From: Thermodesulfovibrionia bacterium
GTDB taxonomy: Bacteria; Nitrospirota; Thermodesulfovibrionia; UBA6902
Length of the DNA stretch: 64,000 bases
Direction: 5' to 3'
NCBI GenBank assembly: GCA_030646035.1
Contig: JAUSMY010000046.1
Coordinates: 73,072 to 137,071 of the forward strand
The position numbers were made by a program, and so were the translations under genes. Position 1 is the first letter of the stretch; every line of letters starts with the position of its first letter. Below, in pieces: positions 1 to 61,293 of the stretch. Below the pieces are notes generated by a model that worked only from the letters and a program-made list of their open reading frames with translations, made no database searches and had not been told where the DNA came from.

Positions 1-168
1 CCGTTTGAAGCGGTGAACAAGACAAAAAGGCGCAAGATAGCAAATGTCGCGCTTCTTTACCTGAAGAAGCTTAAAGAGACCCCGCCGTGCAGGTTTGACA
101 TTGTCAGCATCTGCTATGAGAATATGAAGCCTGAGATCGAGCTTATCAGGGATGCGTTTGAAGTTTAG
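1..168 (+). CDS. YraN-like (UPF0102) putative endonuclease, C-terminal fragment; the 5' end lies outside the window
   Basis: Frame 1 runs from base 1 to TAG at 166-168 and reads ...[55 protein letters not shown]. The fragment resembles the C-terminus of the YraN family and immediately precedes the tRNAs. Confidence 0.45.
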
Positions 169-15772: not shown

Positions 15773-15782
15773 GTGATCTGAG

Positions 15783-20219: not shown

Positions 20220-20282
20220 GTTTATGACGAATATGCGAATGATAATAATTGAAAATAGAATACAAAGTGAGGAGAGATCAGT

Positions 20283-25934: not shown

Positions 25935-25949
25935 AGTGAGGGGTAGAAT

Positions 25950-37378: not shown

Positions 37379-37512
37379 TTGAGCTGCCGGTATGCCTGAT
37401 AGGCTTGTGTCAAAATTGCCAGTGAACGCTTCAGCCTGTCTTGGAATTGTCTTAGTGTGCTTATTTGTGGTTTAATAAGAAATTAAATAAGTTATCTTTT
37501 TGAGGTGATCAA

Positions 37513-38337: not shown

Positions 38338-38356
38338 AAAACAGACATAACTGATA

Positions 38357-38449
38357 ACCCCTCTGTATCTCCCCTTGTAAAGGGGCGAATTGTAAATCCC
38401 CTCTTTACCAAGGGGCCAACAGTAGGTGCTTTAAGCAGGGTAGGGGAGG
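38357..38449 (+). repeat. 93-bp structured intergenic repeat, copy 1
   Basis: cccctctgtatctccccttgtaaaggggcgaattgtaaatcccctctttaccaaggggccaacagtaggtgctttaagcagggtaggggagg. It has about 97% identity to copy 2 and contains the hairpin CCCCTT-GTAA-AGGGG and mutually exclusive alternative stems. Confidence 0.75.
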
Positions 38450-38502
38450 TTAATAATAATGTTAATGATATTAAATGAAAAGCTGATGGCTAATAGCTGC
38501 TA

Positions 38503-39849
38503 ATGAAATTAGCGATTATCTTCCCTCCGTTGCCTTTCGGCTGGACGCCTGTGGCGCCTCCGATACTTGAATATCTGGCAGCGCTTACACGTAGAGCTGA
38601 TCCGAGTATTGAGATCGAGCTGATCAGCGCCAGCGCCACTCCTGATGCCTTTGACAAGCTTGAGTGTGACCTCGCAGCCATCAGCATCCTGACTCCTACG
38701 GCAGTGCCGGGTTATCGAATCGCTGAGAAGCTTCGGGCGCGTGGAATTAAAGTTGTCTTCGGCAATATGCACGCTTCTGCCATGCCTGAGGAGGCCAAGC
38801 ATCATGGAGATGCGGTGGTGATAGGCGAGGCAGAATCTGTCTGGCCTGAGGTGCTGCGTGATTTCCGCGCCGGTAAGATGAAGCCGTTTTACCGTGGTGA
38901 ACAGATCTCTCTTGATGACCTGCCCACACCTCTTTACGGGCTTTTGCAAGGTAGCCGCAAACATCAATTCAGGATAGTGAATACATCCCGGGGCTGTCCG
39001 TACAACTGCACCTTTTGCTCGGTCAAACCCTTCTACGGCTCAAAGATACGTTTCCGTCCCATTGAACATGTGGTGCGCGATGTGGCTGCTATTCCTGAGA
39101 AGATGTATATAAACGGTGACGAGAACATCTGGTGGGCAGGCAAGGAGCAGAGGGCGATAGACCTCTTCACAGCGCTCAAGGGAAGCGGCAAGAAGTGGAT
39201 GGGCTTCGGCAGTCTCCGCCCTGTGCAGTCGCCTGCGGGGAAGCGAATGCTGAACGCGGCCCGTGAGAGTGGCATGCTATCTCTGTGGGTCGGTTGGGAT
39301 TCCATCTCAGACGAAGGGTTGAAGGGATATGCAGCCGACGGCAAGATCGGTGTTGACCGCGAGGCAGCGCTGCGCACTCTCAGGGATCATGGAATTGATG
39401 TGTCGCTGTTTTACATGCTTGGGTCGCGTGAGGATTCTCTTGATGATTTCAAGCGTTCCATAGAGGTTGCAGACCGGCTCGGAGTAAGCATGCATCCGTC
39501 ATTGGTTGTGCCTTATCCCGGGACAAAACTTCGTGAGCAGTATGAACCTTATCTTTATAAGGAGCTTGGCTGGGAATATTATACCGGCGCATACGCGCTT
39601 TTCGAGCATCCTGACCCCGCTATGACGCCTGAGGTGCGTGAGCAAAAGTTCTATGAAAGCGCGCTTGAAATTTTGAGCCTGCCGAGGGTGTTGCGCCATA
39701 TGTTCAAGGTTCCATTGGCCGGCTTTCCTCATGCCCACATCCTTTCACTCATGTCCCAAATACCTGTACGGCATGGCATGAAGATTGCGTATAATAAATG
39801 GAAAGATTCAAAAGAATCTGTAAATAAAAAGAGATTTAGTTACAGATAG
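38503..39849 (+). CDS. cobalamin-binding (class B) radical SAM protein #2
   Basis: The N-terminus MKLAIIFPPLP is a B12-domain start. The CxxxCxxC motif is TSRGCPYNCTFC. Confidence 0.85.
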   Translation: MKLAIIFPPLPFGWTPVAPPILEYLAALTRRADPSIEIELISASATPDAFDKLECDLAAISILTPTAVPGYRIAEKLRARGIKVVFGNMHASAMPEEAKHHGDAVVIGEAESVWPEVLRDFRAGKMKPFYRGEQISLDDLPTPLYGLLQGSRKHQFRIVNTSRGCPYNCTFCSVKPFYGSKIRFRPIEHVVRDVAAIPEKMYINGDENIWWAGKEQRAIDLFTALKGSGKKWMGFGSLRPVQSPAGKRMLNAARESGMLSLWVGWDSISDEGLKGYAADGKIGVDREAALRTLRDHGIDVSLFYMLGSREDSLDDFKRSIEVADRLGVSMHPSLVVPYPGTKLREQYEPYLYKELGWEYYTGAYALFEHPDPAMTPEVREQKFYESALEILSLPRVLRHMFKVPLAGFPHAHILSLMSQIPVRHGMKIAYNKWKDSKESVNKKRFSYR

Positions 39850-39949
39850 TAGGAATTGGCTTACAATTATGTAACAATTTTGTTGTTATGTATGACAGGT
39901 TTGTGTTCTAACTGAATTTATTGCCTTGGGAATTAAAGGAGAACCTATT

Positions 39950-41446
39950 ATGACCAATAAAGATATGGAGAATGAACGTCATCGCCTGACAGAAGATGTC
40001 CTCAGATTTATAGAAGCCGGGGTTGATGCCGATATTCCGGATTTTAATGATTACTGCATGAGGATGTTCGCCATGCACTATGAGAGCAATAAAATATTCC
40101 GTGAGTTCTGCGACGTGAAGAAGGTCAAGCCTGGCGACATCAGCCGATGGGAAGATGTTCCCATGGTCTATAACGATATGTTCAAGACGCATCTTGTTGC
40201 CTCATTTCCTCTGGAGCAGTCTGTTATGTCCTGTCTTACAGGAGGGACAACAAGCCTTACCCAGCGTGGACGCATCTTCCGGGATGAGGATGGCAAGCGC
40301 CTCGTATTTGCGGCAAACAAGATGATGACCGGTTCTTATCTGTTTCCTGATTTCGAAGATGGGAAGCGCTGCCGTATCCTTATCCTTGCACCGAGCCCGG
40401 AGCTTGCTCCGTCAATGGGAATGGCGATAGGCATGGACCAGACGCGCAGAGCTTTCGGAACGCCTGACAGTATGTTTTTGTTAGGCAAGTCAGGGATACA
40501 TATCAATGAACTTTTAAAGGCCCTGCGGGAGTCTGAAGCGAGCGGAGTGCCGGTTGCGCTGATAGGAGCGACATCTGCATATGTGTACTTTTTTCAGGCA
40601 TGCCGCAGAAAGAAGATGAAGTTCTGCCTGCCGCCCGGAAGCCGCATATGCGACGGGGGAGGATACCGCGGCAGATTCGGGCCTGTTAGCCGTGAGGATT
40701 ATTACGGGATGGTGCAGGAGATACTTAACATACCGGAATCCCATTGTGTAAATGTTTTAGGTGAAGCTGAGACTGCGACCAACCTTTTTGACGATGCTTT
40801 GCGCCGCCACATAAAGGGACTTCCGCCGCGCAAGCGCACGAGGCCTGTGCCGCCATGGGCGCGTGTCCGGGCAATGAGTATTGACGACCTCAGCCCTCTG
40901 CCGGATGGTGAGGTCGGCCTCTTTGCGCATTGGGATCTTGCAAATGTTCCTACTGTTCTGGCAGTGATCACTGATAACCTCGGCTATACGACAGATGACG
41001 GCCGCGGCTGCGAGATGGTGGGCCGCGCGAAGATCGAGGGAGGTAAGGTATCTCCGCTGCCTGATGAGGAGGCCGCAAGCCCGATGGGAGATTCGGCCAT
41101 CTTCCGTATGCTTGAGAAGTATGTGCATTTCACGATCGACCTTAAGATGCAGATGGCAAAGGACCCTAAGGTTGAACCGAGCGTGCGTGAGGAGATAGAG
41201 GCGAGGCCCGGTTCTGTCGCGTCATGCCCGCAGGTTGTTGACGAGATACTTGTAGCGCAGGCTGATGCCGAGGCAGCCGAACTCAGGGACAGATCTCTGG
41301 GCGCATTTAAGGATCAGACCGAGCGTCCTCTGGACTGGTATGCTGATGAGGAGAAGAAGCAGGTGCTTGCAGACCATCCTGCCGGTCTAAAGTCTGAGAA
41401 GCATGAGAAAGACGCTTCGAAGAATAAGGCAAAGAATAAAGAATAA
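39950..41446 (+). CDS. LuxE-like acyl-protein synthetase / adenylate-forming enzyme with a Lys/Glu-rich tail
   Basis: An aaggag RBS lies 7 nt before ATG 39950. The motifs WEDVPMVYNDMFK, CLTGGTTS and DGGGYRG parallel the LuxE motifs IPVFPTSVFK, SSGTxG and GGGWK. Confidence 0.55.
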   Translation: MTNKDMENERHRLTEDVLRFIEAGVDADIPDFNDYCMRMFAMHYESNKIFREFCDVKKVKPGDISRWEDVPMVYNDMFKTHLVASFPLEQSVMSCLTGGTTSLTQRGRIFRDEDGKRLVFAANKMMTGSYLFPDFEDGKRCRILILAPSPELAPSMGMAIGMDQTRRAFGTPDSMFLLGKSGIHINELLKALRESEASGVPVALIGATSAYVYFFQACRRKKMKFCLPPGSRICDGGGYRGRFGPVSREDYYGMVQEILNIPESHCVNVLGEAETATNLFDDALRRHIKGLPPRKRTRPVPPWARVRAMSIDDLSPLPDGEVGLFAHWDLANVPTVLAVITDNLGYTTDDGRGCEMVGRAKIEGGKVSPLPDEEAASPMGDSAIFRMLEKYVHFTIDLKMQMAKDPKVEPSVREEIEARPGSVASCPQVVDEILVAQADAEAAELRDRSLGAFKDQTERPLDWYADEEKKQVLADHPAGLKSEKHEKDASKNKAKNKE

Positions 41447-41456
41447 AGAAAAGACA

Positions 41457-41549
41457 CCCCTCTGTATCTCCCCTTGTAAAGGGGCGAATTGTAAATCCCC
41501 TCTTATCCAAGGGGCCAACAGTAGGTGCTTTAAGCAGGGCAGGGGAGGT
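41457..41549 (+). repeat. 93-bp structured intergenic repeat, copy 2
   Basis: It has the same sequence as copy 1 apart from three substitutions (cttatcc for ctttacc, gggcagg for gggtagg). It lies 32 nt upstream of ORF 41581. Confidence 0.75.
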
Positions 41550-41580
41550 TTAGGATAATGTATTTGGTCTTTATTGAACT

Positions 41581-41922
41581 ATGAAAAAAACATTGACCAT
41601 AATTATCGGTTTTGTGCATGACTTTGCTGCCGGCTGCTGGGCAGCGACTGTTCTTGCGATATATTGGCTAAGCAGTCATTCCTTTCCGGTTGAAGTCAGC
41701 GGCATAATGTTTGAACTGAAAAAGCAGCTCTTCTGGGCAGGGATAGCATGTGTTGTTATAGTTTTTGCCACAGGCACGGGCAGATCTTTTACCTATGTTG
41801 ATAATGTCTACGGCAAGGATGCGGAAAAGGCAAGAAGAAGGCTGCTGATCATAAAACACGTTATCCTTATTGTTGTTTTTGGCTCCGGTATTTTCTGGCA
41901 GTACACGATGGTTTTTTGGTAG
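41581..41922 (+). CDS. small 3-TM membrane protein, hypothetical
   Basis: The protein is 113 aa with three hydrophobic helices. It is followed by rSAM #3. Confidence 0.45.
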   Translation: MKKTLTIIIGFVHDFAAGCWAATVLAIYWLSSHSFPVEVSGIMFELKKQLFWAGIACVVIVFATGTGRSFTYVDNVYGKDAEKARRRLLIIKHVILIVVFGSGIFWQYTMVFW

Positions 41923-42007
41923 AGCACTCCTATCTTCCTAAAACATTATCAAACCACCGGTCATTTACTTGCTCAATGGTATCTGAATTGCTTAAAATAG
42001 TGACACT

Positions 42008-43468
42008 ATGAAAAAGATAAGAAAAGTTATGCTTATTACTCCGCCTTACCACTCCGGAGTTGTTGAATCCGCAGGTGTCTGGCTGAATGTTGGTTTTGTC
42101 TATATTGCAGGGAGCCTCAGGGTTGCGGGATATGACCCGATTTATTATGATGCCATGAGCCACTGGCATGGATATGATGAGATCGGGAAGAGGATTAGAG
42201 AAGAGAAACCTGATGTTATTGGGACAACCGCTTTTACCGCAGAGATCGTTGAGGCGCTAAACCTCCTGAAGTTTTCCAAAGAGATAGACCCTAATATTAT
42301 TACTGTGATCGGCAATGTTCACCCTACGTTCTGCTACGATGAGATATTCAAAGACCACCACTCATGCGTTGATTATATTGTGCGTGGTGAGGGTGAAGAG
42401 ACGATGGTGGAGCTTCTGGATGCGCTTAATTCCAATGGCGACCTGTCAAAGGTAAGGGGCGTAGTATACATGGATAAGGGGAAGGTCGTGGTCAATGATT
42501 CAAGGCCGTACATACATGACCTTGACAGCCTGCCCATGGCATGGGACCTGGTCGATTGGCCGATTTATAAATACAAGGCCATGGAGAATTCCATAATGGC
42601 TATTGTCAGCTCTTCAAGGGGATGCAACCAGCAGTGCAGCTTCTGCTCGCAGCAGCTCTTCTGGCAGAGAAACTGGAGGGGCCGAAGCGCTGAGAACTTT
42701 GTAGCCGAACTTGAGCACCTGAGAGACACCTATGGCGTAAATGTCGTGATGCTTGCTGATGAGACTCCCACGCTTTCAAGAACAAGGTGGGAGAAGATAC
42801 TGGATCTTCTCATTGAGAGGAAGGTAGGCGTGAAGCTGCTTCTTGAGACGCGCGTTGATGACATAATCAGGGACGAAGATATCATGTGGAAATACCGGGA
42901 TGCCCTTGTAGACCATATTTATCTCGGAGTGGAATCGACCTCACAGGAGGCGCTTGATAAGTTTAAAAAGAATATTAAAGTAGAGGAATCAAAGCGCGCG
43001 CTTGACCTTATAAACTCGTATGATATTGTCACAGAGACATCTTTTGTGCTCGGTATGCCTGGTGATACTGTTGAGAGTATAAGGGAGACGGTTGAGCTTG
43101 CCAAGTTCTATAATCCTGACCTTGCGTTCTTCCTTGCAATAGCCCCATGGCCTTATTCAGAGATATATCCTGAGCTTAAGGACTTTGTGGTGACAAACGA
43201 CTACAGTAAATATAATCTTGTTGAGCCTGTGGTAAAACCGAAGAATATGACCATCGATGAATTGAGGGATGAACTTGGAAGGGCGTCAAGGGTGTATTAC
43301 ATGCACAAGCTTGAGACCCTTGACTCGATGACCGAGAAGAAACGTGAGTTCATGATAAAGGTCATTCATATCATCTCTACAAGCTCTTACCTTGCGGAGA
43401 CGATGAAGGGCACATCAATGCCTGAGGATATAAAGAAACTGCTTGCGAAACTGCACCATAAAACTTAA
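42008..43468 (+). CDS. cobalamin-binding (class B) radical SAM protein #3
   Basis: The N-terminus MKKIRKVMLITPPYHSG is a B12-domain start. The CxxxCxxC motif is SSRGCNQQCSFC. Confidence 0.85.
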   Translation: MKKIRKVMLITPPYHSGVVESAGVWLNVGFVYIAGSLRVAGYDPIYYDAMSHWHGYDEIGKRIREEKPDVIGTTAFTAEIVEALNLLKFSKEIDPNIITVIGNVHPTFCYDEIFKDHHSCVDYIVRGEGEETMVELLDALNSNGDLSKVRGVVYMDKGKVVVNDSRPYIHDLDSLPMAWDLVDWPIYKYKAMENSIMAIVSSSRGCNQQCSFCSQQLFWQRNWRGRSAENFVAELEHLRDTYGVNVVMLADETPTLSRTRWEKILDLLIERKVGVKLLLETRVDDIIRDEDIMWKYRDALVDHIYLGVESTSQEALDKFKKNIKVEESKRALDLINSYDIVTETSFVLGMPGDTVESIRETVELAKFYNPDLAFFLAIAPWPYSEIYPELKDFVVTNDYSKYNLVEPVVKPKNMTIDELRDELGRASRVYYMHKLETLDSMTEKKREFMIKVIHIISTSSYLAETMKGTSMPEDIKKLLAKLHHKT

Positions 43469-50270: not shown

Positions 50271-51733
50271 CAGGATGCAGTCCTTGTAGTGCTGAGCACT
50301 TCTTCCAATGAGGTCTTGCCGGAGATGACCTTATTTATGCCGACATCAAACATTGTGCGCATTCCGCTCTTCTTTGCTGCTGCTGCGATAGTGTCGGAAC
50401 TTGCCTTATTTATAACAAGCTCTTTTATGGCTTGATTCATCTTCATGATCTCGTATATAACGGTCCTGCCGCGGTAGCCGCTGTCATTGCATTTCTCACA
50501 TCCCTTAGCCCTGTAGAAGACAGCTCCATCAGGGATCTTGATATCAGAACCTTCAATGAAATTAGTTGGAGGAGAATAGGCCTCTTTGCAGTGATCGCAT
50601 AACAGCCTTATCAGCCTCTGTGAGATGACCGTATCTACAGTTGAAGCAAGAAGGAATGGTTCAATCCCCATGTCTATGAGCCTGGGCAGGCTTGACGCTG
50701 CGTCGTTAGTATGAAGGGTAGAGAAGACCAGATGTCCTGTGAGAGAAGACCTTATCGCAAGTTCTGCTGTTTCAAAATCCCTCATCTCTCCTATGAGTAT
50801 TACATCAGGATCCTGCCTTAATATCGAACGTAAACCGGATGCAAAGGTAAGGCCTGCTTTTACGTTTATTTGCGATTGCCTTATGAGCGGCAGGTGATAC
50901 TCGATAGGGTCTTCAATAGTAAAAATATTTTTATAGACGCTGTTGATTATTGATAAAGCGGAATAGAGCGTTGTTGTCTTGCCTGAACCTGTAGGCCCGC
51001 TCATGAGTATCATCCCATACGGCATGCTCAATGAATGATTCAGCGTCGCAATATCCGCTTTCTCAAAGCCCAGATTTTCAAGTCCTAATATAAGCTGAGA
51101 CTTGTTGAGCAGCCTCATAACGATGTTTTCCCCATCGACGATCGGGAAGGTCGATATTCTTACATCAAATTTCATGTTTTGTCTTGAGATCATCGTGCCC
51201 CCATCCTGAGGCACCCTGTTTTCCGCTATGTTCATTGAACCCATTATCTTTACCCTTGAAACGATCGCAGACAATAAACTTTTCGGCAGGTACATCGCAT
51301 GGCGAAGCCGCCCATCGATCCTGAACCTGACCCTTGTGCCCCTGGTATCAGGCCCTATATGGATATCTGTTGCGCCCATATCAATGGCAGAGAAGATAAT
51401 GTTTTCAACAAGCCTTACAATAGGCACCAGAGATACATCAACCTTGGTTCCGGCGGTCCGGTCTTCTGAACGGAGCGCTGTTGTGCTTTTCCTTACTATA
51501 TCTTCTATATCATCAGGGATATCTATCTCTTCTTTCTGCTCGGCAGTATCGCCGGTATGCGACATGGATAGTACTTTAAGAAGGTCTTGCTGGCTTATAA
51601 AGCCTTTACTGAAGAGGATAGCGCCTATAAGCTCCCCGGTTTTTTTCTGCTCGTCAAGCGCAATTTTCAGCTGCTCTTCTGAGATGAGGCCGGTCTCTAT
51701 CAGGCGTTCGCCTATCTTTTTGTAAAACGGCAT
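50270..51733 (-). CDS. type II/IV secretion ATPase (GspE/PilB family)
   Basis: It has an N-terminal GSPII_E domain and Walker A SGPTGSGKTT. The C-terminus carries a tetracysteine CDHC...CEKC zinc motif. Confidence 0.95.
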   Translation of the reverse strand: MPFYKKIGERLIETGLISEEQLKIALDEQKKTGELIGAILFSKGFISQQDLLKVLSMSHTGDTAEQKEEIDIPDDIEDIVRKSTTALRSEDRTAGTKVDVSLVPIVRLVENIIFSAIDMGATDIHIGPDTRGTRVRFRIDGRLRHAMYLPKSLLSAIVSRVKIMGSMNIAENRVPQDGGTMISRQNMKFDVRISTFPIVDGENIVMRLLNKSQLILGLENLGFEKADIATLNHSLSMPYGMILMSGPTGSGKTTTLYSALSIINSVYKNIFTIEDPIEYHLPLIRQSQINVKAGLTFASGLRSILRQDPDVILIGEMRDFETAELAIRSSLTGHLVFSTLHTNDAASSLPRLIDMGIEPFLLASTVDTVISQRLIRLLCDHCKEAYSPPTNFIEGSDIKIPDGAVFYRAKGCEKCNDSGYRGRTVIYEIMKMNQAIKELVINKASSDTIAAAAKKSGMRTMFDVGINKVISGKTSLEEVLSTTRTAS

Positions 51734-51867
51734 AATTGGTTAACCTGCCTTTGTATAGTAATAAGATACTATTACATTATAACCAATTATTTCTAAGATG
51801 CAATAGAAATTTGGAAGCTGATTTTTGAAAAAACCGGTAATCGATATATTGATGAGTGTCAGCTTTG

Positions 51868-52989
51868 TCAGTTCTTTTTGAGCCGTTTACTGTCTGTCAT
51901 TGTTACTATGATATAAAATGCGACCAGGAAAGTTATTGTGACGGCAAGCGCGCCTGTCCATCCTAACAGGTCAGGCAGGAAAATATTACTGCCGGTGATC
52001 TTTATTCTTGAAGACATGAAAGGCATCCACAAACCAACCGCAAGCATTGCGCCTAATATTGCAAAGAAATGTTTGATATGTCCCTCGGCTGACCGCCGGA
52101 GAATTCCGACTACTCACCCGTCTGACAGCACCATGCCGAATCCGAATATCATGCCGCCTATTATGCTGTGCAGCCCGGCAGGCATTACGAATGTTGAGGC
52201 CGGTTTTAATGAAGAAGCTTTGATAATGCTGAAACCGATAACGCCTATGATAAGGCTTATTATCACTCCGCGCATCATTTCATAATTCCGTGAAATGAAC
52301 AAGTCCCGGAACGCTGATGAAAAACCAAAGGAGGCGCGCTGAAATACCAATCCAAATGCCATACCGAAGATCAATATGCCTGCGAGGCTGCCTTTGCCGT
52401 TTACAGAGTAGGCCACGATAATTATAGAAATTAAAATGATGACAAGAAATCCTATTAAAGGTGTTCGTGATAAAGATTTGTTATTGCTGACACAAGATGC
52501 CGGGCTTCCTTGCTTCTTTGATAACAGGAGTTTACCACCGAGATATCCGCCTGCGATCAAACCAACCATCATGTAGAACCCGCTTAATGACAGAGCCATG
52601 ATCGATGAAAAAAAACCACCGACAATACAGGAGCCTGCGATCAGGCTGCCGATTCCCATCAGCACACCGCCTGTGAAACTTTTAGAACATTCACCTGCAC
52701 CGGATTTCGTAATTTTAAATTCTCTTGAAAGCAGGGCGCCGACCAATGCGCCTAAAAACAAGCCGACCGTTATAAGGTTCTTAATATCATATTGCGCCGG
52801 TTCCAGAGGACCCCATGGTGATTCAATATTTATACCTGCAAGCTTGTAAGTCCAAATTCCCCATGTCCCCATTGCGGGATACACAGCTCCCAGCGGCATT
52901 AAATATATAAAGAAGGCGATGTTGAGCAATCCCAACAGCACACCGCCAACCCACTTGGGCCATTGTTTCGTAAATAATTTATTATACAT
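51868..52989 (-). CDS. YeeE/YedE-family (sulfur/selenium transport) membrane protein with an in-frame TGA at 52114-52116, a putative selenocysteine codon (373 aa if read through)
   Basis: The first half carries the family motif AGSCIVGG. The 291-aa ORF stops at TGA exactly where the second repeat's equivalent motif would be (SDG-U-VVGIL). The reading frame then continues uninterrupted for 81 more TM-like residues with no RBS or start codon. A hairpin CUCCGGC-GGUCA-GCCGAGG begins about 12 nt downstream of the UGA. Confidence 0.55.
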
Positions 52990-53039
52990 ATGTATTCAGA
53001 GCCTCCTTTGTTTTATTTCTATTGTTTCTACCATAAAAG

Positions 53040-53303
53040 TTATGGACTCTTATTAGTATCTTTCAGGATCTCCGCCTTTAATTCATCGTATGTAACAGTG
53101 CCGTTCTGCACGATGAAACGATCGTTGAGCATAACAGAAGGGCATGGCGGCGGATCTTTTTCCATCCAATATTCATTGGATGACTTTTTAATCACAACAA
53201 CATCTACGCCGAACTCTTGATTTGCCTTCCAGGCAACCTGAGTGTTCTGCTGTCAACGAGTACCCATCGGTTCGTTTACATATAGCTTAATGGTGTTTTT
53301 CAT
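53040..53303 (-). CDS. small thioredoxin-fold (ArsC/Spx- or glutaredoxin-like) protein with an in-frame TGA at 53253-53255, a putative selenoprotein (87 aa)
   Basis: A strong GGAGGA RBS is present. The protein reads MKNTIKLYVNEPMGTR-[TGA]-QQNTQVAWKANQEFGVDVVVIKK...PPPCPSVMLNDRFIVQNGTVTYDELKAEILK. The TGA sits in the loop after beta-strand 1, where redox-active Cys/Sec residues of this fold are found. A hairpin begins about 12 nt after the UGA. Confidence 0.4.
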
Positions 53304-53330
53304 TTTCATTTCCTCCTTTAAATTGTGTAA

Positions 53331-54590
53331 CTAAAATTCATATCTCATTTGCCAGTAAATATTATCGTTCTTATCCAACTGCCCGAACTGATTCCATTCT
53401 TCTCCGCCTCCGAAGATATTTGCTCCAACCGCCGCCCATATGGAATCGGAGAAGTTGTACTTAACCTCAGGGTTTAAGAGGTAATCGCTGTCAGTCGGGC
53501 TGTAGAAAGAGAAGAGGGAGAGCCTTAGGGTTTGATGTATCAAAAATTGTGTCAGCCTCACAGAGGCAAGATCATGCAGCTTATTCTCGTGCGGAAATCC
53601 GGCAGGGAGGTACTTCTCGTACTCCGGATATTTGTGCATATATTCGCCGTAATATTGAAGACCGATGGTAAAGTCTTCCCACATCTGTCTCTGGAAGCCG
53701 ACAAGGAATTTCGTTTGTGAATTTGGCATCATCGGGTCTGTGCCGTCACTATCCTGTCTTGAATCGTAATATCCCGCCTCAAGGCTCAGGACACCATCCA
53801 ATGCTCTCCCCTGTAAGCTTGCTCCATAAACAGATAGTTCAGGGTAAAAGAACTCGATCTTTGTCGGAGCAGTCATGCTGTCCGGAAGCATGGAAGGCTG
53901 TCTGGAAAACCCGCGATAAAAATACAGAGACGCATCAAAACCTGAAACATCACGATATATCCTGAATGCAACTTCAGTATTTTCAAGAGTTGCGGTTGGC
54001 TCTTTCTCCACACGATTTGCAATAGACGGCATCGGGTCGAACATGTGGAATCTCTTCTGCTCAGGGAAATTGTTCGGTTCAAAAAATGGAACGATAACCA
54101 ATTCCGCAGAGGCAAAGGATGGATACACGCCGATCTTTATACCATCGACACCTTTTTTTAAATACTCCATTGGCCTGCCTGAGAAGAACGCCTCATAGTC
54201 TTTTGGAAATACATCGTTTATAAAAATCAAATCTCCAAGCCCCCACGTGATGACCTGTCTGCCAAGCCTCATATCCCACATGGAAGAAGTGTAATCAACA
54301 TATCCTTCCCTTAACTCTATTTCGGCTTCTTCATCAACATGGTCATAAAAGGCGTCTGTCTTCAGAAAGAGATGGAATGCTTCTTTATTCGCATCAAGTT
54401 TGATCTGCAATCTTTCCTCAGCCCATTTGAAGTCCTTGCCGTCAGGATTTGATGAGTTGGTGTCTACAGAATAGTTTCCCTGTAAGAAGCCATGCAGTGA
54501 AATATCATCTGCTGTTGCAAACGATGATGATAGCGCAAAGAAAAAGCACGATACGAAACAACCGATAAAAAATCTGTTTTTATTTTTCAT
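53331..54590 (-). CDS. putative outer-membrane beta-barrel protein
   Basis: A signal peptide follows MKNKNRFFIGCFVSCFFFALSSSFA. Alternating amphipathic strands are present, and the C-terminus is ...YWQMRYEF with a terminal Phe, the OMP signature. The start is placed at 54590 to avoid overlap with the methyltransferase gene. Confidence 0.5.
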   Translation of the reverse strand: MKNKNRFFIGCFVSCFFFALSSSFATADDISLHGFLQGNYSVDTNSSNPDGKDFKWAEERLQIKLDANKEAFHLFLKTDAFYDHVDEEAEIELREGYVDYTSSMWDMRLGRQVITWGLGDLIFINDVFPKDYEAFFSGRPMEYLKKGVDGIKIGVYPSFASAELVIVPFFEPNNFPEQKRFHMFDPMPSIANRVEKEPTATLENTEVAFRIYRDVSGFDASLYFYRGFSRQPSMLPDSMTAPTKIEFFYPELSVYGASLQGRALDGVLSLEAGYYDSRQDSDGTDPMMPNSQTKFLVGFQRQMWEDFTIGLQYYGEYMHKYPEYEKYLPAGFPHENKLHDLASVRLTQFLIHQTLRLSLFSFYSPTDSDYLLNPEVKYNFSDSIWAAVGANIFGGGEEWNQFGQLDKNDNIYWQMRYEF

Positions 54591-54597
54591 TTTGCGC

Positions 54598-55260
54598 CTA
54601 TACTGATTTGTCTGCCCGGATACAAACAAAACCCGCATCTTTTACCAATCTGTTATTTGCAACTTCTTTCCCAGGCTTAACTGATGGAGGCTGACATAAT
54701 GTTGACGAATACGAATCAACTCTCAAGCCTGCCTTCTCTATCATCTCTTTAACTTCATTGACGCTATAAAACTTTGCATACTTGTATATAGAGTGTCCTT
54801 CTGCTTTTTTTCTCGCATACAGCTGACCCCATAAACTTTCCTTGTTTATTATCCCGGCGATAAGCCCTCCGTTTTTCTTCAAAACCCTTTTTGCCTCAGA
54901 GATCACCTTCTCAGGATTTTCCACAAAGCAGAGCGTAAACAGTATAAATACGCCTCCAAAAGATTCATCTTTAAAAGGCAGTTTATCTCCTGAAGCTGTC
55001 TCGGCCTTTATCCCGCGCATCTCCGCTATCTTTAAAACTTCTTTAGAAGGATCAATGCCGTACTCAATACCCAATGCTTCTGCAAATCGTCCCGTTCCTA
55101 CTCCGATTTCGAGGAAGGGATGTTCAAGTCCTTTCATCAAAAGCCTTGCTGACGCGGCCTCCAGTTCAAAAAGCACTTTGCCTTCCGCACTATCAAACCA
55201 CTTATCGTAATCCCCGGCATGCTTGTCAAAGGCTTCAACATCAGAACTCATTCCACCCAC
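54598..55260 (-). CDS. class I SAM-dependent methyltransferase
   Basis: Motif I is LEIGVGTGRFAEAL. The protein is 220 aa. Confidence 0.8.
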   Translation of the reverse strand: MGGMSSDVEAFDKHAGDYDKWFDSAEGKVLFELEAASARLLMKGLEHPFLEIGVGTGRFAEALGIEYGIDPSKEVLKIAEMRGIKAETASGDKLPFKDESFGGVFILFTLCFVENPEKVISEAKRVLKKNGGLIAGIINKESLWGQLYARKKAEGHSIYKYAKFYSVNEVKEMIEKAGLRVDSYSSTLCQPPSVKPGKEVANNRLVKDAGFVCIRADKSV

Positions 55261-56036
55261 TTCTTCGGCGGCTGCTTTAAGAATCGTTCGCTGAACAGGC
55301 TGTCTTCTATCCCGATGTTGTAATCCGTTTTCGTATAGGTAACCTCTGTCCTGTGTCCGCTTGCCAGGTTTTTCATCGCTCTCTTTGTGATTGTCGGAAT
55401 ACCTTTAACATCTTGTATTTCATCAGCGCTGAAGACTCTGTAGAGTTCGCCTTTTTTGTCATAATACTCTTCTTTCAGCGGCAGGAAACTGACCTTGTCA
55501 ATCCATGAGAGTTTGTAACTGTAATCAACATCCTGAGCCTTTGGAGAGCTTTTTATAACATAGCACTCTTTTGTATCAAGTCTTTCCTCTTTTGCAATAG
55601 CATGGTTATCATCTTCCACATCCCGTCCCGAAACATCTTCATATGTAAAATCAGAGCCGACAAAGCTTGAGCTTTTGTCCTGCGCGGCAATCCGTCGAAC
55701 CATGTTGATCGCAGGCACAAAGAGCCACCTGTCATCGTCTTTAGCAGGGAATTTGTAAACCATGAACGTCATGTCTTTCACGTCAGCAGGCTGATAGAAG
55801 TACATGAAATATTTCTGCTCTCCGCCAGACGCGCCGTAATTCTTTCTCAGCATTGTAAGTTCCCTGACTCTCTCCTGTCCGCTTTTGCTGATAAGCTTCA
55901 TCATGACCCTTGCCTTGAAATCCTTGCCTTGATAGAAGAAAGCTTCCTGAGATTTTTTAACAGCTTCCTCCGCAGTCAGGGCAAAGACATTTAACGGCAT
56001 TAACAGTACAACCAATAACATCAGATATCGCTTCAT
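55248..56036 (-). CDS. LolA-like periplasmic lipoprotein-carrier-fold protein (outer membrane lipoprotein-sorting-like)
   Basis: A gggagag RBS and the signal peptide MKRYLMLLVVLLMPLNVFA are present. The gene is immediately downstream of the RND exporter gene, a common pairing. Confidence 0.55.
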   Translation of the reverse strand: MKRYLMLLVVLLMPLNVFALTAEEAVKKSQEAFFYQGKDFKARVMMKLISKSGQERVRELTMLRKNYGASGGEQKYFMYFYQPADVKDMTFMVYKFPAKDDDRWLFVPAINMVRRIAAQDKSSSFVGSDFTYEDVSGRDVEDDNHAIAKEERLDTKECYVIKSSPKAQDVDYSYKLSWIDKVSFLPLKEEYYDKKGELYRVFSADEIQDVKGIPTITKRAMKNLASGHRTEVTYTKTDYNIGIEDSLFSERFLKQPPKKWVE

Positions 56037-56037
56037 T

Positions 56038-58353
56038 TTAACTCTCCCTTTTGAAAAGCCAGCCTTGCAGTAAAACAATAAGAGCTGGCAGATAAATTAT
56101 TGTCATTATCGCGCTGAGCAGCATCATGCTGACAATGAAAGCGCCCACAGTTATATACGGGGTTAACGGCGCGAATATCATTACGGCAAAGGATGCTGCA
56201 AAGAGTATTGCGTTGCGCATTATCCCTTTCCCGGGACGCGCTGCTGTCCAGAGCAATGCGTCAGAAAGAGTTTCGCTCCCCTTCGTTTCGGTCATGCGTT
56301 GCCTGAGCCTGCTCACAAAATGGATAGCAAAGTCCACCGCCATGCCGAGAGAGAGGCAGGAAAGAACAGAGATCGGCATATCAAAGTCCTTGCCGATAAA
56401 GCCGACAACTCCATAGATAAACAGTATTGTGAAGAGAAGCGGGGTATATCCGACAATAGCCCATTTGACGGATCGGAAGTCAAAGGCAAGGATGGCAAAT
56501 ACGGCTATCAATGCAATAATAAAGCCCGTTACCATGTCCCATAACACCTCATCATTCCAGACAAGGTTGAAGTAGGCGATACCCGACGGCTTCAATTCCA
56601 TAGCAACAGGATGGGCAGTCTTGTACTCATCCATCGCCTTTATCACCTCCCTCATTGCCTGCGCGTCCCATGTCTTCAACTGCACCCAGATGTTCGCTTT
56701 TCTGAACGGGTAGTCCACAACATTGTCCAGATCAGCGGGCTTTGCAGACATTGAGAAGAGGAAGATATACTGCCCGATCATCTCCTTTGTCTCAGGGACA
56801 ACATCATATTTAGGGTCATTGTCATGAAGGACAAGGTTAATCCGCTTCACGTAGTCAACAACCGAAGTTGTCTTGCCGACAACAGAGAGTTTTTCAAGGT
56901 GCTGCTGAAGCCCCTCGATATAGCGCATCGCCTCAGGGGTTTTTATGAAATCATCTTCTTCTGCAGTCGCGACGACATATGCCATTGAGGTGCCGCCGAG
57001 AGAACTGTTTATGACCGTATCGGCTATACGAACATCGCTGTCCTTCTTGAACCATTCCACCAGATTATTATTGACATTCATTTTTGTTACCCCGACAATT
57101 GCTATCGCACAAAGCACAAGGCCGGCGATGACCGTAGCCTTTGGACTATGCGTGCCTATTGAGGCAAGCTTCTGTAATAAACTCGAAGTCCTGCTTGAGC
57201 CGATGTCTTCCGCATGAGCGATCTTTTCTATCTGCTCATCTTTCACAAAGGTGAACATGGCCGGGATAAAGCTGAAACTCAAGATCCGCAGGACGATAGT
57301 GCCGAATGCCACAACACCGCCAAAGACCTGTACCGGGATAATATTCATAAAAAGAAGCACGCCGAAACCGACGGCTGTTGCCAATGCGGTGTTGCGGACA
57401 GGGCGGCTCACAGCTCGCATTGTCTCGATTATTGCGGCCTTTTTGTCTTTCTTCTCCCTGTAGCGGAAGTAGAACTCGTTGAATATATGCATGCTGTCTG
57501 TTGCGATAGCCATAAGAAAGACAGGCGCCATTGAACTCATGATATGAATAGGGTAGCCAAGGCCAATAAGAAGTCCCATGCTCCAGACGATGCTGACCAT
57601 GGCGTCCATCATCAGCGTAATGGAGAGGAAAAGGTCTCTGAACATGAGATACCTGACAAGAAGCATGACCATTCCTGCAATCGGGGCAAAGATCGCCATG
57701 AGCTTGAACATCTCAGCTCCGAAAGTATCCCGTGCTACAGGATCGCCTGCTACGTAATATTTTTCATCGCCTGTTTCTTTCTTCAATATCTTTTTTATCT
57801 CATCGGCGATCTCTTTTCCGTTTGATCCTTTTTCAAGAGGGACATATATGGCGGTAGTCTTTCCATCCTTTGAGATAATTTTGTCAATGAATAGCGGGTT
57901 TTCAAACAGCATCTTCCTGAGTGACTCTATCTCCGCCTCACTTTTTGGAACTTCTGTCATGAGAGGAGCGACCCGCAGCGTGCCTGCTTCGGCAGTTACA
58001 TTGGTAATAGTCGGAAAGCTGTTTACATCTCTGGCAGCAACGCCCTTAAGTTTTAATATTTCATCTGTGATCCTCTGGACCTTTCCGAGGGTATCTTTGT
58101 TGAGAACGCCTTTTTCATTCACAATCCCGACCACGATCATGTCTTCATAAAGGCTGAAGGTCTTTTCTACTTCGTCATTCCACATCCTGACATCTGATGT
58201 CTCAGGGAGCATGCTTTTGGGGTTCGTGTCAGTCTTGATCTTCGTAAACTGGGTCGCAAACGCAAGTGTGATGATAATCGTAAGCAGTACGATTAGTTTT
58301 GGATGTTCAACAGAAAATTCAACAAGGGAAAACTTACGCATGCATACCTCCAC
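56038..58353 (-). CDS. RND-superfamily exporter (MMPL/SSD-type, 12 TM, two large periplasmic loops)
   Basis: The protein is 771 aa with two 6-TM bundles in the classical RND/MMPL arrangement. Confidence 0.85.
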   Translation of the reverse strand: MEVCMRKFSLVEFSVEHPKLIVLLTIIITLAFATQFTKIKTDTNPKSMLPETSDVRMWNDEVEKTFSLYEDMIVVGIVNEKGVLNKDTLGKVQRITDEILKLKGVAARDVNSFPTITNVTAEAGTLRVAPLMTEVPKSEAEIESLRKMLFENPLFIDKIISKDGKTTAIYVPLEKGSNGKEIADEIKKILKKETGDEKYYVAGDPVARDTFGAEMFKLMAIFAPIAGMVMLLVRYLMFRDLFLSITLMMDAMVSIVWSMGLLIGLGYPIHIMSSMAPVFLMAIATDSMHIFNEFYFRYREKKDKKAAIIETMRAVSRPVRNTALATAVGFGVLLFMNIIPVQVFGGVVAFGTIVLRILSFSFIPAMFTFVKDEQIEKIAHAEDIGSSRTSSLLQKLASIGTHSPKATVIAGLVLCAIAIVGVTKMNVNNNLVEWFKKDSDVRIADTVINSSLGGTSMAYVVATAEEDDFIKTPEAMRYIEGLQQHLEKLSVVGKTTSVVDYVKRINLVLHDNDPKYDVVPETKEMIGQYIFLFSMSAKPADLDNVVDYPFRKANIWVQLKTWDAQAMREVIKAMDEYKTAHPVAMELKPSGIAYFNLVWNDEVLWDMVTGFIIALIAVFAILAFDFRSVKWAIVGYTPLLFTILFIYGVVGFIGKDFDMPISVLSCLSLGMAVDFAIHFVSRLRQRMTETKGSETLSDALLWTAARPGKGIMRNAILFAASFAVMIFAPLTPYITVGAFIVSMMLLSAIMTIIYLPALIVLLQGWLFKRES

Positions 58354-58392
58354 CTATTTACGCAGGAATGATAATATTCGCAAGCTGCTTAC

Positions 58393-58815
58393 TTAAAACG
58401 TCAGATTCATATCCGCCTTGATAACAACATCTTTATAATATGTGGCCGGGTCAGCTACCTCTACACCATCAACAAAATCCTGCTTGGTCATGCCAAAGAG
58501 CGGGACGTTCAAGGGACATGCAAGCAGCTTCGCTCCCTCTTTGTAGAGCATGAAAAGCAGATCTTCAACCGACGGGAGGTTCATTTCATCCATCCTCGCC
58601 ATAACAGCATCGCCTTCTTCTTTAGGTTGGTCCGGCAGGCAGACAAGTGTGTTTACCTTGTCCTTATGAAGGGCGTTGACCCCGCGCGACCCGAAGAACA
58701 TTGTGACATTAGAACCCTCTTTCAGGAGGCTGTACGCGGTCATGAGGGCATTGTAAACCTGGCACAGTTCATCGTGGAAACACATAATCGAAACGTTTTT
58801 GATAACCTTTTCCAT
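58393..58815 (-). CDS. DsrE/DsrF-like family protein
   Basis: VSIMCFHDELCQVYNALMTAYSLLKEGSNVTMFFGSRGVNAL resembles the DsrE-fold N-terminal motif. Confidence 0.65.
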   Translation of the reverse strand: MEKVIKNVSIMCFHDELCQVYNALMTAYSLLKEGSNVTMFFGSRGVNALHKDKVNTLVCLPDQPKEEGDAVMARMDEMNLPSVEDLLFMLYKEGAKLLACPLNVPLFGMTKQDFVDGVEVADPATYYKDVVIKADMNLTF

Positions 58816-58851: not shown

Positions 58852-59592
58852 TTATTTTCCCGTCAATATCTGGTACCACATTCTTAGACCTGTTATTGCG
58901 ATAATAACGGCAATTGCCAGGCGGAGGTATTTGGTATTTACTTTCTTACTCATCTTCCCGCCGAATTGCGCCCCCGGTATTGTGCCGATGACAAGCGCTA
59001 TCGCATATGGCCATAGTATCTGTCCGGTAGTCATCTTGCCTATGGTTCCCATGAGTGCGCCCAGAAAGACGATTCCAAGCGTACTGCCTATTACAATGCG
59101 TGTCGGAATGTTAAGCAGATATATCATTGCCGGGATGTAGATGAAAGCTCCCGGCGCACCGACCATGCCGCCGAAAGTGCCTATCAAAAGGCTTAAGAAT
59201 ATCGCAAGCGGTTTGTTATATTGAAGGTCATCAGGTGAGATATCCTCTCCCTGCTCACGCTTTGGAATGAACATTGTCACTGCAGCTATAACAGCCATTG
59301 TAGCAAAGATAGCTAACAGGAAAGAGCTTTTGGAAGTTTTTGAGAAGAGAGAACCTGCAAGATTACCTATGGCATTGCATACTCCCATGTAGAGAAGGAG
59401 AGACTTGCTCACAAAACGGTTTTTATTATGAACGATAACAGCTGTCAGGGATGCTGACAGCACCTGCACCATACTGATGGCGGCAACCTGCTTCATGTCA
59501 AACTGCCCGACACCGACCAGGCCGAGCAGTCCGGATAAGAAACCTCCGCCAAGACCGAGTATTACGAGTGTGATCAATAATTGTATTTCCAT
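58852..59592 (-). CDS. TauE/SafE (TSUP, DUF81) sulfite/organosulfur exporter family membrane protein
   Basis: The protein is 246 aa with a 4+4 TM repeat and Gly-rich helices. Confidence 0.85.
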   Translation of the reverse strand: MEIQLLITLVILGLGGGFLSGLLGLVGVGQFDMKQVAAISMVQVLSASLTAVIVHNKNRFVSKSLLLYMGVCNAIGNLAGSLFSKTSKSSFLLAIFATMAVIAAVTMFIPKREQGEDISPDDLQYNKPLAIFLSLLIGTFGGMVGAPGAFIYIPAMIYLLNIPTRIVIGSTLGIVFLGALMGTIGKMTTGQILWPYAIALVIGTIPGAQFGGKMSKKVNTKYLRLAIAVIIAITGLRMWYQILTGK

Positions 59593-59636: not shown

Positions 59637-60882
59637 TCAACGCCGTATTTTTTTGTAATCACCGTACATGGTCTTTTCAAGAAGCATGGCCATTGGTTTT
59701 TTTAAAAACGATTCTGACAGCCAGTGTTTTTCAAATATGACCTTTCCTAAATGCCACAATGGAGAAGGCTTGCGCATTTTTACCTGTGGATTCGGAGTAG
59801 CGTAGAAATTCCCGGAGCCGAACCCGGCTGTACCATCTCCGATCTCTATGAAACAGCCTCCTTCTCCCGTATATTCCGCTTTTTCTCCGATCCCCAAAAT
59901 CTCATTTGCAATATTTTCAGCCACAACTTTTGCTTCAAAATGGGCAAAAACCCCTGCCTTGGGAAGCATCAGAGGCATACCCGGCTTCCACTCTGGGTAT
60001 CTTGACCTTGGCTACATCTCCTATGGCGTAGACATTTTCAAATTGAGTTTTTAATGTATCTTTATCCGCTGGTATCCAGTCATCAGTCAATCCTGATTCT
60101 CTGATGACCTTGGGGGATTTGTGAGGAGGAACTACCAATAATAGATCATAGTTTGCCTTCCCTTTGTCAAAAGTTATTTCCTTTTGTTCTGCATCTATTG
60201 AGGCAACCTTGTGCTCAAAATTGTATTCTATTCCCGCTTCTCCAAGCATCTCTTTTATCATATTTCCCACAGCAGGCCCGGCAACCGGCATTGGCAGTGG
60301 TTCGGGAGCAAATATTTTCACATTAACATTATTTTCAAGGCCTCTCTTTCTAAAGATATCTTTCAGCAGGAAGGCGGTTTCATAGGGTGCAGCCGGACAT
60401 TTGTAAGGCATGGAAGAAACAAGGACTACTATGTTCCCGCCGGAGAAGTTCTTTATACTGTCTCTCGCTTTCAGTATCCCGTCTAATGTGTAAATATTGC
60501 AGGCATCTTTTTTTAAGGCGTCTTCAAGGCCTGGCACTGCATCGGGAAATAATGAAGCGCCGAGAGAGATCACAAGGTAATCATAGGCGATCTCTTTCTT
60601 TTCGGTTTTGACTGTTTTGTTTTGAGTATCGATCTTTACGATATCTTCATTTATAAGATCAATGCCGCTCTCGATCAGTCTTGAGATGTCTTTTTTGATT
60701 TCTTCCGGTTGTCTGTCTCCGCACATTACCCAGAGAAAGGAAGAGGCAGATATATGCTCTTTGCTTTTATCTACTATTATTATCTTGTGTTCATTTCCTA
60801 ATTTCTTCCTGAGATCATTAGCCGTAGTCAATCCGCCAACTCCTCCGCCTAAGACTACGATCGTTTTTCCATCGCTTCCCAT
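59637..60882 (-). pseudogene. sqr: sulfide:quinone oxidoreductase-like FAD-dependent pyridine-nucleotide-disulfide oxidoreductase, interrupted by a single frameshift near 59960-59985
   Basis: The N-terminal ORF (60882..59935) carries VVLGGGVGGLT FAD binding and ...AIGDVAKVKIP. The C-terminal ORF (59978..59637) begins ...LPKAGVFAHFEAKVVAENIA...GEGGCFIEIGDG, the conserved SQR C-terminal region, in the +1 frame. Together they give a full-length enzyme of about 415 aa. Confidence 0.7.
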
Positions 60883-60924: not shown

Positions 60925-61272
60925 TTATCTCTTTCTTTTCCCGGGGTAGGTACCTTTTTTTGACACAGGGCAGCATTTGGGCCCGGGTAGATCCTCGGAA
61001 TATTCCTTATTTAATATATGAATGATATCCAATGCTAATGGACTCTTCAGGAAGTAGCATCTTAATCTGCCGTCAATAAAAAAATCGATGATCCCGGCGC
61101 TCCTGAGCTTTGACAGGTGCTGAGATATATTTGGCTGACTCACATTGTCAAGAAAGTCTTCGAAATCGCTTACGCACTTAACACCATTGGAGAGTTCGGT
61201 CAGGATTTTTATTCTGACAGGATGGGTAATGGCCTTGAGTATCTCAATACGCAACAATATATCTTTTGTCAT
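60925..61272 (-). CDS. ArsR/SmtB-family transcriptional regulator (SqrR/BigR-like sulfide-responsive repressor candidate)
   Basis: The wHTH is HPVRIKILTELSNG...SQPNISQHLSKLRSAGII. Cys residues lie in the DNA-binding domain and the C-terminal tail. The gene heads the sqr-tauE-dsrE gene string. Confidence 0.8.
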   Translation of the reverse strand: MTKDILLRIEILKAITHPVRIKILTELSNGVKCVSDFEDFLDNVSQPNISQHLSKLRSAGIIDFFIDGRLRCYFLKSPLALDIIHILNKEYSEDLPGPKCCPVSKKGTYPGKRKR

Positions 61273-61275
61273 ATT

Positions 61276-61293
61276 CAAATATTACGATATTTG
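61276..61293. promoter_or_regulatory. palindromic putative operator at the ArsR-family gene start
   Basis: CAAATAT-tacg-ATATTTG is a perfect 7-bp inverted repeat at the 5' end of the regulator gene, lying in the divergent promoter region shared with mlaE. Confidence 0.4.

Follow-up and report, generated by a model that had tools for sequence, protein, structure and literature searches.

A YedE-like transporter gene with an in-frame UGA, very probably read as selenocysteine, in a probable Nitrospirota-type sulfur operon

Members of the YeeE/YedE thiosulfate transporter family (PF04143) have already been catalogued as selenoproteins, with the motif GUxSG and WP_012471001.1 as the example, and are named there among several predicted transporters that contain selenocysteine (Sec) (PMC9312934, PMC13188914). 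In the YeeE protein of Spirochaeta thermophila, Cys91 and Cys293 are reported to be indispensable (PMC11582611), and the PDB entry 6lep is entitled 'inactive mutant C91A'. In the yedE-like/tusA/dsrEFH type II synteny (YTD) cluster, polysulfide from a type III sulfide:quinone reductase (SQR) is proposed to enter through a YeeE-like protein, after which sulfur passes to TusA, DsrEFH and DsrC, with in-vitro evidence for the transfer steps (PMC13293266). Here we describe a YedE-like (PF04143) membrane transporter gene (51868..52989, minus strand) in a 64,000-nucleotide stretch of a Thermodesulfovibrionia bacterium genome (assembly GCA_030646035.1, contig JAUSMY010000046.1), the whole of which is called the window below. 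An in-frame UGA interrupts this gene at the codon of a conserved pore cysteine, and we conclude that it is very probably decoded as Sec and that the gene is a real selenoprotein gene. This follows from a clean division of 79 loci into Sec and Cys types, coding-type substitution beyond the UGA, suppression of synonymous change exactly over a downstream hairpin, and loss of that hairpin in a Cys-encoding sibling.

An in-frame UGA at a pore cysteine position

The gene begins at ATG 52989 behind a ribosome-binding site (RBS), AAGGAGG, and comprises 373 codons, one of them for Sec, up to its true stop TGA 51870-51868. The first-pass annotation, made from the letters of the window, had described a 291-codon open reading frame (ORF) that continues beyond its stop without a new start. 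This is what we found: the ORF from ATG 52989 stops at TGA 52116-52114, 81 sense codons (VVGILRRSAEGHIKHFFAILGAML...) follow in the same frame as far as TGA 51870-51868, and the total is 373 residues. Neither a start codon nor an RBS stands directly after the UGA; the first standard start in frame is ATG 52047, 23 codons on, with no earlier GTG or TTG. In the window the frame stays open for a median of 6 codons after a stop (34 open stretches of at least 200 codons), and stretches that reach 81 codons make up 2.7% of all stop-to-stop stretches, so the open frame beyond the UGA is more than would be expected by chance. Because 13 other long ORFs in the window end in TGA, we take the code to be standard and UGA not to be reassigned genome-wide. 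A scan of 51600-53450 for promoters and terminators gave background level only, and a window-wide list of in-frame TGA junctions was mostly noise, with no candidate substantiated besides this gene and the adjacent tsoC.

For profile and family searches of the 373-residue product, U was replaced by C. Pfam Sulf_transp (PF04143) matched in two stretches with 148.1 bits against a cutoff of 27. The best curated full-length match was NCBIfam YedE/FdhT (NF033796), collinear over residues 5-371 of 373, at 143.2 bits against a cutoff of 350, and the score against TIGR04112, also of the YedE/FdhT selenium-metabolism type, was 52 against 200. Scores for the TsuA/YeeE thiosulfate transporter families NF041049 and NF052577 fell short of their cutoffs by a much wider margin (80.9 against 645 and 88.1 against 400). 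The sole sequence matches in the PDB were the S. thermophila YeeE entries 6leo, 6lep, 8k1r and 8j4c.

Alignment within the YeeE/YedE family confirmed that the UGA falls on a conserved pore cysteine, as had been proposed, and corrected which one. The first-pass annotation had placed it near residue 293 of the characterised homologue, whereas residue-level alignment with 8k1r and 6leo equates the UGA (52114..52116, minus strand; residue 292, motif SDG-U-VVG) with Cys91 and equates Cys121 with Cys293. Cys121, the second pore cysteine (codon 52627..52629, minus strand), lies in the motif AGS-C-IVGG, which we found at residues 118-125 as described, and is invariant in 37 aligned homologues. The two homologous halves stand in swapped order relative to S. 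thermophila YeeE, and the Cys91-type motif lies here in the C-terminal half. The structure model that we used is an AlphaFold model of P0002, a 51%-identical Cys-encoding sibling, rather than of the window protein itself (pLDDT 89.8, pTM 0.87), and in it both cysteines sit at helix breaks. Foldseek searches with this model ranked YeeE structures first, at probability 1.0, with a collinear TM-score of just 0.4-0.5 because the halves are swapped.

The transporter thus resembles S. thermophila YeeE/TsuA (6leo, 6lep, 8k1r), the partner of YeeD/TsuB, in fold family, in giving the top structural matches and in having two halves, each with a pore cysteine position at a helix break; the pairing of YeeE/TsuA with a small cytoplasmic TusA-like acceptor also recurs in related loci. 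It differs in sequence (~16% identity), in the opposite order of the halves, in Sec for Cys91 and, in the subclade of the window, in Gly for Cys22. Cys22 is the third cysteine conserved in YeeE; this subclade (xDG-U-VVG) has Gly in its place and, two residues ahead of Sec, an Asp. The Gly of the window protein is Gly222, and the aligned YeeE construct has Ala at position 22. Cys is retained at the Cys22 position by the sister subclade (xGG-U-AxG) and by Cys-type relatives.

The suggestion that this would be an unusual membrane selenoprotein overstated its novelty, the family being already listed in PMC9312934 and PMC13188914. With the catalogued YeeE/YedE selenoprotein it shares the Pfam family, a single Sec after Gly in the G-C/U-x-x-G pore motif, and the status of a bioinformatic prediction. 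Compared by motif and description, the two differ in that the window protein reads GUVVG and its relatives GUA[AV]G, GUMAG and GUVSG, only L016 fitting GUxSG (L and P numbers denote our loci and proteins). A query with a Geobacteraceae YeeE (P0114) for WP_012471001.1 returned full-length Cys proteins only, and the YedE family goes unnamed in the main texts of Zhang & Gladyshev 2008 and Peng 2016. The window gene is a mis-annotated further member of a catalogued selenoprotein kind and no new selenoprotein class.

Conservation of the UGA and of a hairpin downstream

The homologue survey took one genome per species and yielded 79 distinct loci. TGA occupies this codon in 17/17 loci with at least 43% identity and is followed in frame by VVGILRRSAEGHIKHWF...; all are Nitrospirota or Thermodesulfovibrionia-type metagenome-assembled genomes (MAGs), and they hold 15 distinct Sec-type sequences from independent MAGs and metagenomes. 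The aligned codon is TGC or TGT in 61/61 remoter homologues examined, mostly from Desulfobacterota, and TGT in the sibling P0002. Among database proteins, about 36 of the closest (43-93% identity) align with exactly 78% of the query and finish with ...FGFGMxxxxG at this codon, the point at which full-length relatives show GGC. Gene callers split every Sec-type homologue into pieces of roughly 300 and 64-70 residues, and the GenBank MAG records of the clade still carry the truncated-protein annotation. Public MAGs are therefore systematically mis-annotated for this clade, with a fragment of ~300 residues and a small orphan ORF in place of one gene, for which the fix is straightforward.

Third codon positions beyond the UGA diverge by 0.54-0.56 and positions 1 and 2 by 0.21-0.30; upstream of it the corresponding values are 0.58 and 0.29. 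From the third-position excess after the UGA we conclude that the downstream frame is under protein-level selection. Mean pairwise identity over codons +1 to +12 is 76%, and the 22 codons from the UGA to ATG 52047 are the best-conserved protein segment of the gene.

A hairpin resembling a bacterial Sec insertion sequence (SECIS) starts 12 nt 3' of the UGA, with CUC-C-GGC and GCC-GA-GGG flanking the loop GGUCA (52082..52101, minus strand). The first-pass annotation had drawn it as CUCCGGC-GGUCA-GCCGAGG, which we located at 52101-52083, 12 nt beyond the UGA, and had likened its GGUC loop to bacterial SECIS elements; the likeness is borne out by occurrence in Sec genes only, synonymous constraint, an fdhF-like loop and absence in the Cys sibling. 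The 15 distinct Sec-type sequences all show the pattern CUY-N-GGC / GGUCN / GCC-GAR-G, spaced constantly from the UGA, with a shifted stem in L001 and L015, and a GGUC in the loop region is present in 15/15 Sec genes but in none of the Cys genes (0/61). When synonymous diversity was measured along a codon alignment in 345 windows of eight codons, the nine lowest values all belonged to windows that begin +3 to +11 codons after the UGA. Ala at +9 is encoded by GCC in 15/15 sequences, Gly at +11 by GGA in 15/15 and Arg at +7 by CGG in 13/15, while the loop Ser codon varies freely, all four UCN codons being used.

RNAalifold predicts pairs 16-18:33-35 and 20-22:28-30 around a GGUCN loop. At pair 18:33, 12 sequences have C-G, 2 have U-A, a compensatory change, and 1 has C·A. 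In L001 and L015, Gly-Arg (GGC AGG) replaces Trp/Arg-Arg, and a shifted six-pair stem, UCGGCA/UGCCGA, surrounds GGUC; both share the 10-mer GCAGGUCUGC with the SECIS loop of E. coli fdhF. The fdhF element has the arrangement UGA-N18-GGUC, which puts its GGUC at 22-25, one nucleotide nearer the UGA than in the window (23-26). The sibling P0002 encodes the identical ILWRSAEG but uses the codons UUA UGG CGU UCU GCU, so that the loop motif is gone, and its local fold is weaker, at -5.4 kcal/mol where the Sec genes range from -7.2 to -11.9.

Proposed role and alternative readings

We consider it likely that the gene encodes a single 373-residue YedE-like channel or transporter in which the UGA is decoded as Sec through the SECIS 12 nt on, and which serves a chalcogen relay in an ArsR-regulated sulfur operon. 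The reading as a chalcogen-anion channel was reached because the neighbourhood matches the YTD cluster with type III SQR. The bacterial SECIS hairpin would direct Sec insertion at UGA 52116-52114, and Sec would take the place of the central pore cysteine (the Cys91 equivalent) at the break of the discontinuous helix, opposite Cys121 (the Cys293 equivalent). Its selenol could then act as the central relay residue, through which a reactive chalcogen anion would cross the cytoplasmic membrane and be handed to a carrier in the cytoplasm; sulfane sulfur/polysulfide or thiosulfate would be the most likely substrate, a selenium species a less likely one. The carrier in the window would probably be TsoC, a small selenoprotein encoded next to the transporter, and in related loci a TusA/YedF-like protein with Sec, with DsrE(Sec)FH next in line. 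The gene would be part of an ArsR-regulated sulfur-trafficking operon of a Nitrospirota-type bacterium. The analysis shows that the UGA is conserved and pairs with Cys, that the frame beyond it is coding, that the RNA is constrained, and to which family and neighbourhood the gene belongs; Se incorporation, substrate, transport direction and partner are inferred from this. Sec would occupy the pore position at which, in the one relative with a characterised structure, a Cys-to-Ala mutant is inactive, and the natural Cys/Sec pair offers a test of whether anions pass by transient covalent or hydrogen-bonded chalcogen contact.

Several observations weigh against this interpretation. No Rfam SECIS model matched, either in a whole-window scan at the gathering threshold or in permissive scans around both UGAs, and the Rfam scans of the window returned just two tRNAs plus noise (sR7, CRISPR-DR7). 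Classical covariation is thin, amounting to one pair in a highly conserved stretch. The hand-drawn hairpin registers showed no changes on both sides, and shuffle controls were uninformative because the hairpin columns barely vary. The whole-segment minimum free energy (52 nt after the codon) does not separate Sec from Cys genes, the Cys genomes being more GC-rich, and the bulk folding-energy comparison was replaced by the synonymous-site and motif tests given above. As to the machinery, neither the 64 kb window nor the retrieved sequence around Sec-type loci yielded tRNA-Sec, selA, selB or selD: tRNA-Sec was absent from the window, whose tRNAs are tRNA-Pro and tRNA-Arg, and from 14 Sec-type loci, and SelA, SelB and SelD were absent among the 35 window ORFs scanned with Pfam or NCBIfam. 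Support for Sec decoding comes indirectly from the second selenoprotein gene, tsoC, alongside and from four other selenoprotein families in related loci. The substrate is assigned by gene context and analogy, and the operon may be partly decayed in the window, which has no TusA or DsrEFH and a frameshifted SQR.

Among the alternatives, one keeps Sec decoding and changes the role: the protein would import selenium specifically, as a transporter of the YedE/YedF (FdhT) type supplying selenophosphate synthesis. We regard this as unlikely, though it has evidence of several kinds on its side. YedE/FdhT is the best curated full-length match for both the transporter and P0002, YedF is the top-scoring model for the partner in related loci, and a Cys-type homologue adjoins selA in L091 and L092. 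Comparative genomics has also tied YedE to selenium, and in M. maripaludis Se starvation induces it, but the yedE mutant of that organism has no clear selenium phenotype (PMC5322559; PMC11097638). The YedE and YedF scores, moreover, are far under their cutoffs, the transporter reaching 143 where 350 is required and the partner 40 where 79 is required, and the neighbours of the transporter and its relatives handle sulfur (type III SQR, DsrE/F/H, TauE and a BigR-like ArsR regulator), with no selD among them and no YedF-like gene in the window. Another Cys homologue stands beside SoxYZ and FCSD, and the matching YTD cluster has in-vitro evidence of sulfur transfer.

Readthrough of the UGA as a standard amino acid, by a near-cognate Cys or Trp tRNA or through lineage-wide reassignment, is very improbable. 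One database pipeline does give the TGA of the neighbouring tsoC as Trp (P0121), and Sec machinery is missing from the directly observed window and flanks. The Trp is, however, an artefact of translation with code 4, the DNA having TGA, and TGA ends 13 other long ORFs in the window as well as the transporter gene itself. The position pairs specifically with Cys, and a constrained fdhF-like hairpin at the canonical distance would be needless for simple readthrough. The TGA-interrupted neighbours in related loci, in addition, belong to established selenoprotein families (DsrE UxxC, GrdB/PrdB UxxC, AhpD CxxU).

An equally slim chance attaches to the UGA being a real stop, leaving a truncated protein of 291 residues and perhaps a separate 59-residue C-terminal piece from ATG 52047, in the manner of split PmpA/PmpB. 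The division that gene callers make in every Sec-type homologue (~300 and 64-70 residues) would fit this, and split half-size family members exist (PMC11582611). Against it, the 22 codons between the UGA and ATG 52047 are the segment with the highest protein conservation and have coding-type substitutions, and the break lies inside the pore motif GxC/UxxG rather than between the two repeats. A two-gene split, named beforehand in the first-pass annotation as an outcome that would speak against Sec, was not seen: neither a start codon nor an RBS follows the break, and the Cys homologues are single, unsplit polypeptides. That the TGA is a nonsense mutation in a pseudogene, or a base-call or assembly error for TGC/TGT, has a negligible chance, for although the frameshifted SQR of the same operon shows some decay or error here, the identical TGA recurs in 15 distinct sequences, which come from independent MAGs and metagenomes and are under purifying selection before and after it, and a database protein of 93% identity stops at this very residue.

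The probable sulfur operon and related loci

The preferred reading, Sec at the pore of a transporter in a sulfur relay, draws on the adjacent gene tsoC (53040..53303, minus strand), which encodes a small thioredoxin-like selenoprotein with the motif NEPxGxxU and matches NCBIfam NF045708 (seleno_TsoC) with 50.3 bits against a cutoff of 45. Its likely start is ATG 53303, 8 nt past the RBS AAAGGAGG. It lies 50 nt upstream of the transporter gene, with which it is probably co-transcribed. The in-frame UGA of tsoC (NEPMGTR-U; 53253..53255, minus strand) is matched by TGA at the same codon in L085-L089, from three further lineages, and a small hairpin, CAGG-UUG-CCUG, occupies 53240-53230, from 12 nt downstream of the UGA. 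The protein shows a hint of the thioredoxin-like fold and a conserved DPPPCPS motif. A homologue search found no Cys form of TsoC, and tblastn against 84 YedE loci found no TsoC homologue.

The Trp in P0121 (L088 329-583) was considered as a sign of a TGG-to-TGA mutation in tsoC and rejected, the W having arisen from the code-4 translation noted above. Code-4 gene calling on a short contig such as L088 can hide or mimic selenoprotein sites. The name Tso is said to stand for the 'three selenoprotein operon' system, reportedly of Haft and Tolstoy in 2025. The window is like that system in the adjacent TsoC equivalog, in an ArsR regulator that weakly resembles TsoR and in the logic of an operon with several selenoproteins, and unlike it in that none of the window ORFs scanned matched TsoA, TsoB, TsoX or TsoY.

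The genes on the same strand run in the order ArsR, SQR, TauE, DsrE2-like, MMPL/HAE3 RND, LolA-like, methyltransferase, DUF1302-like, TsoC (U) and YedE (U). At the head of the run, the ArsR/SmtB-family regulator (60925..61278, minus strand) is 65-68% identical to regulators beside Sec-YedE genes in related loci. The type III SQR (59640..60882, minus strand) gave 226 bits over the first 292 positions of profile NF049943 and is broken by a frameshift near 59994; tblastn matched it in two pieces to the intact orthologue in L004, and at the break a Gly codon of that orthologue is cut to a single base, an apparent 2-nt deletion, which could represent either a real pseudogene or an assembly error. 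The C-terminal part of the window SQR has Cys (GEGGCFIE) rather than Sec. There follow, all on the minus strand, a TauE permease (58852-59592), a DsrE2-like gene (58393-58815), an MMPL/HAE3 RND transporter (56038-58353), a LolA-like gene (55248-56078), a methyltransferase (54598-55260) and a DUF1302-like gene (53331-54638).

The DsrE2, MMPL, LolA-like and DUF1302-like proteins are 69-93% identical to those beside Sec-YedE in L007, L008 and L010-L013, and the window transketolase genes are 71-80% identical to those of L093 and L015. Because the neighbour proteins match Sec-YedE loci so closely, we place the source as a Nitrospirota relative. The DsrE2-like/MMPL/LolA-like/DUF1302-like module (53331-58815) accompanies Sec-YedE in several Nitrospirota loci and may handle hydrophobic sulfur or selenium species across the envelope. 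The window has no TusA-like, DsrE(U) or YedF-like gene, and DsrEFH is likewise missing.

Other Sec-type loci have the order ArsR, DsrE(U), DsrF, DsrH, SQR and YedE(U), to which TusA(U), TauE or a GrdB-like(U) gene is added, and the YTD synteny is present in L001, L004 and L093. A TusA/YedF-like gene with TGA for the active-site Cys (DIRNTM-U-PYPKYV or RNGT-U-IPPG) adjoins Sec-YedE in seven loci (L001 11220-11450, L004 3-212, L007 11206-11436, L008 3274-3504, L015 8977-9198, L010 3635-3868 and L013 7859-8089); the partner protein scores best against YedF, as given above. The one Cys-YedE within the clade, P0002, has a Cys-TusA after it and the Sec-YedE genes of related loci a Sec-TusA, the TusA of the L094 Cys-YedE sibling having NMM-C-PYPKYV. 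Related Sec-YedE operons further contain TGA-interrupted genes for DsrE (KVDL-U-GGC), two GrdB/PrdB-like proteins (TPT-U-VIC) and an AhpD-like protein (NNCFY-U-MESH), at L093 423-800 and 5754-7015, L001 8937-9300 and 13661-14420, and L002 11257-11811. Gene callers fragment every one of these DsrE, GrdB/PrdB-like and AhpD-like genes. Cys-type relatives of the transporter stand beside OsmC and a divergent selA (L091 7001-10107, L092 1653-4759) or beside SoxY, SoxZ and an FCSD flavoprotein (L090 4673-8197), and different family members may serve selenium or sulfur pathways.

Related Sec-type loci thus have the exact gene set of the YTD cluster of sulfur-disproportionating and sulfur-oxidising Desulfobacterota and Nitrospirota, together with type III SQR and ArsR, and differ from it in a UGA at the active-site Cys of YedE, TusA and DsrE in the Nitrospirota loci; the window has only the YedE member, with TsoC replacing TusA. 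It is conceivable, though we would not call it probable, that in this Nitrospirota lineage the whole YTD relay, from the YedE-like protein through the TusA/YedF-like carrier to DsrE of DsrEFH, has switched its active-site Cys to Sec, the window variant having TsoC in the carrier's place. The 2026 selenoprotein catalogue lists TsoC, a selenoprotein subtype of type III SQR, and the DsrE-like, GrdB and AhpD-like families, and TusA, SirA and PF01206 are absent from it; no mention of selenocysteine was found in the papers on the YTD cluster that were consulted. The Sec-TusA family and an 'all-selenium relay' may for these reasons be undescribed. The Sec partners, TsoC here and the TusA/YedF-like protein and DsrE in relatives, point to a sulfur or selenium hand-off by selenols in some anaerobic Nitrospirota, and such a chain would bear on YTD function in sulfur disproportionation or oxidation. 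The Sec switch along the YedE-TusA-DsrE relay in relatives lies largely outside the window.

Elsewhere in the window, four consecutive very large ORFs of 1191, 1478, 1883 and 1431 residues occupy 12197-30245 on the plus strand. At 35888-43468, three B12-binding radical SAM genes and a LuxE-like acyl-protein synthetase gene are clustered with cytochrome c assembly genes.

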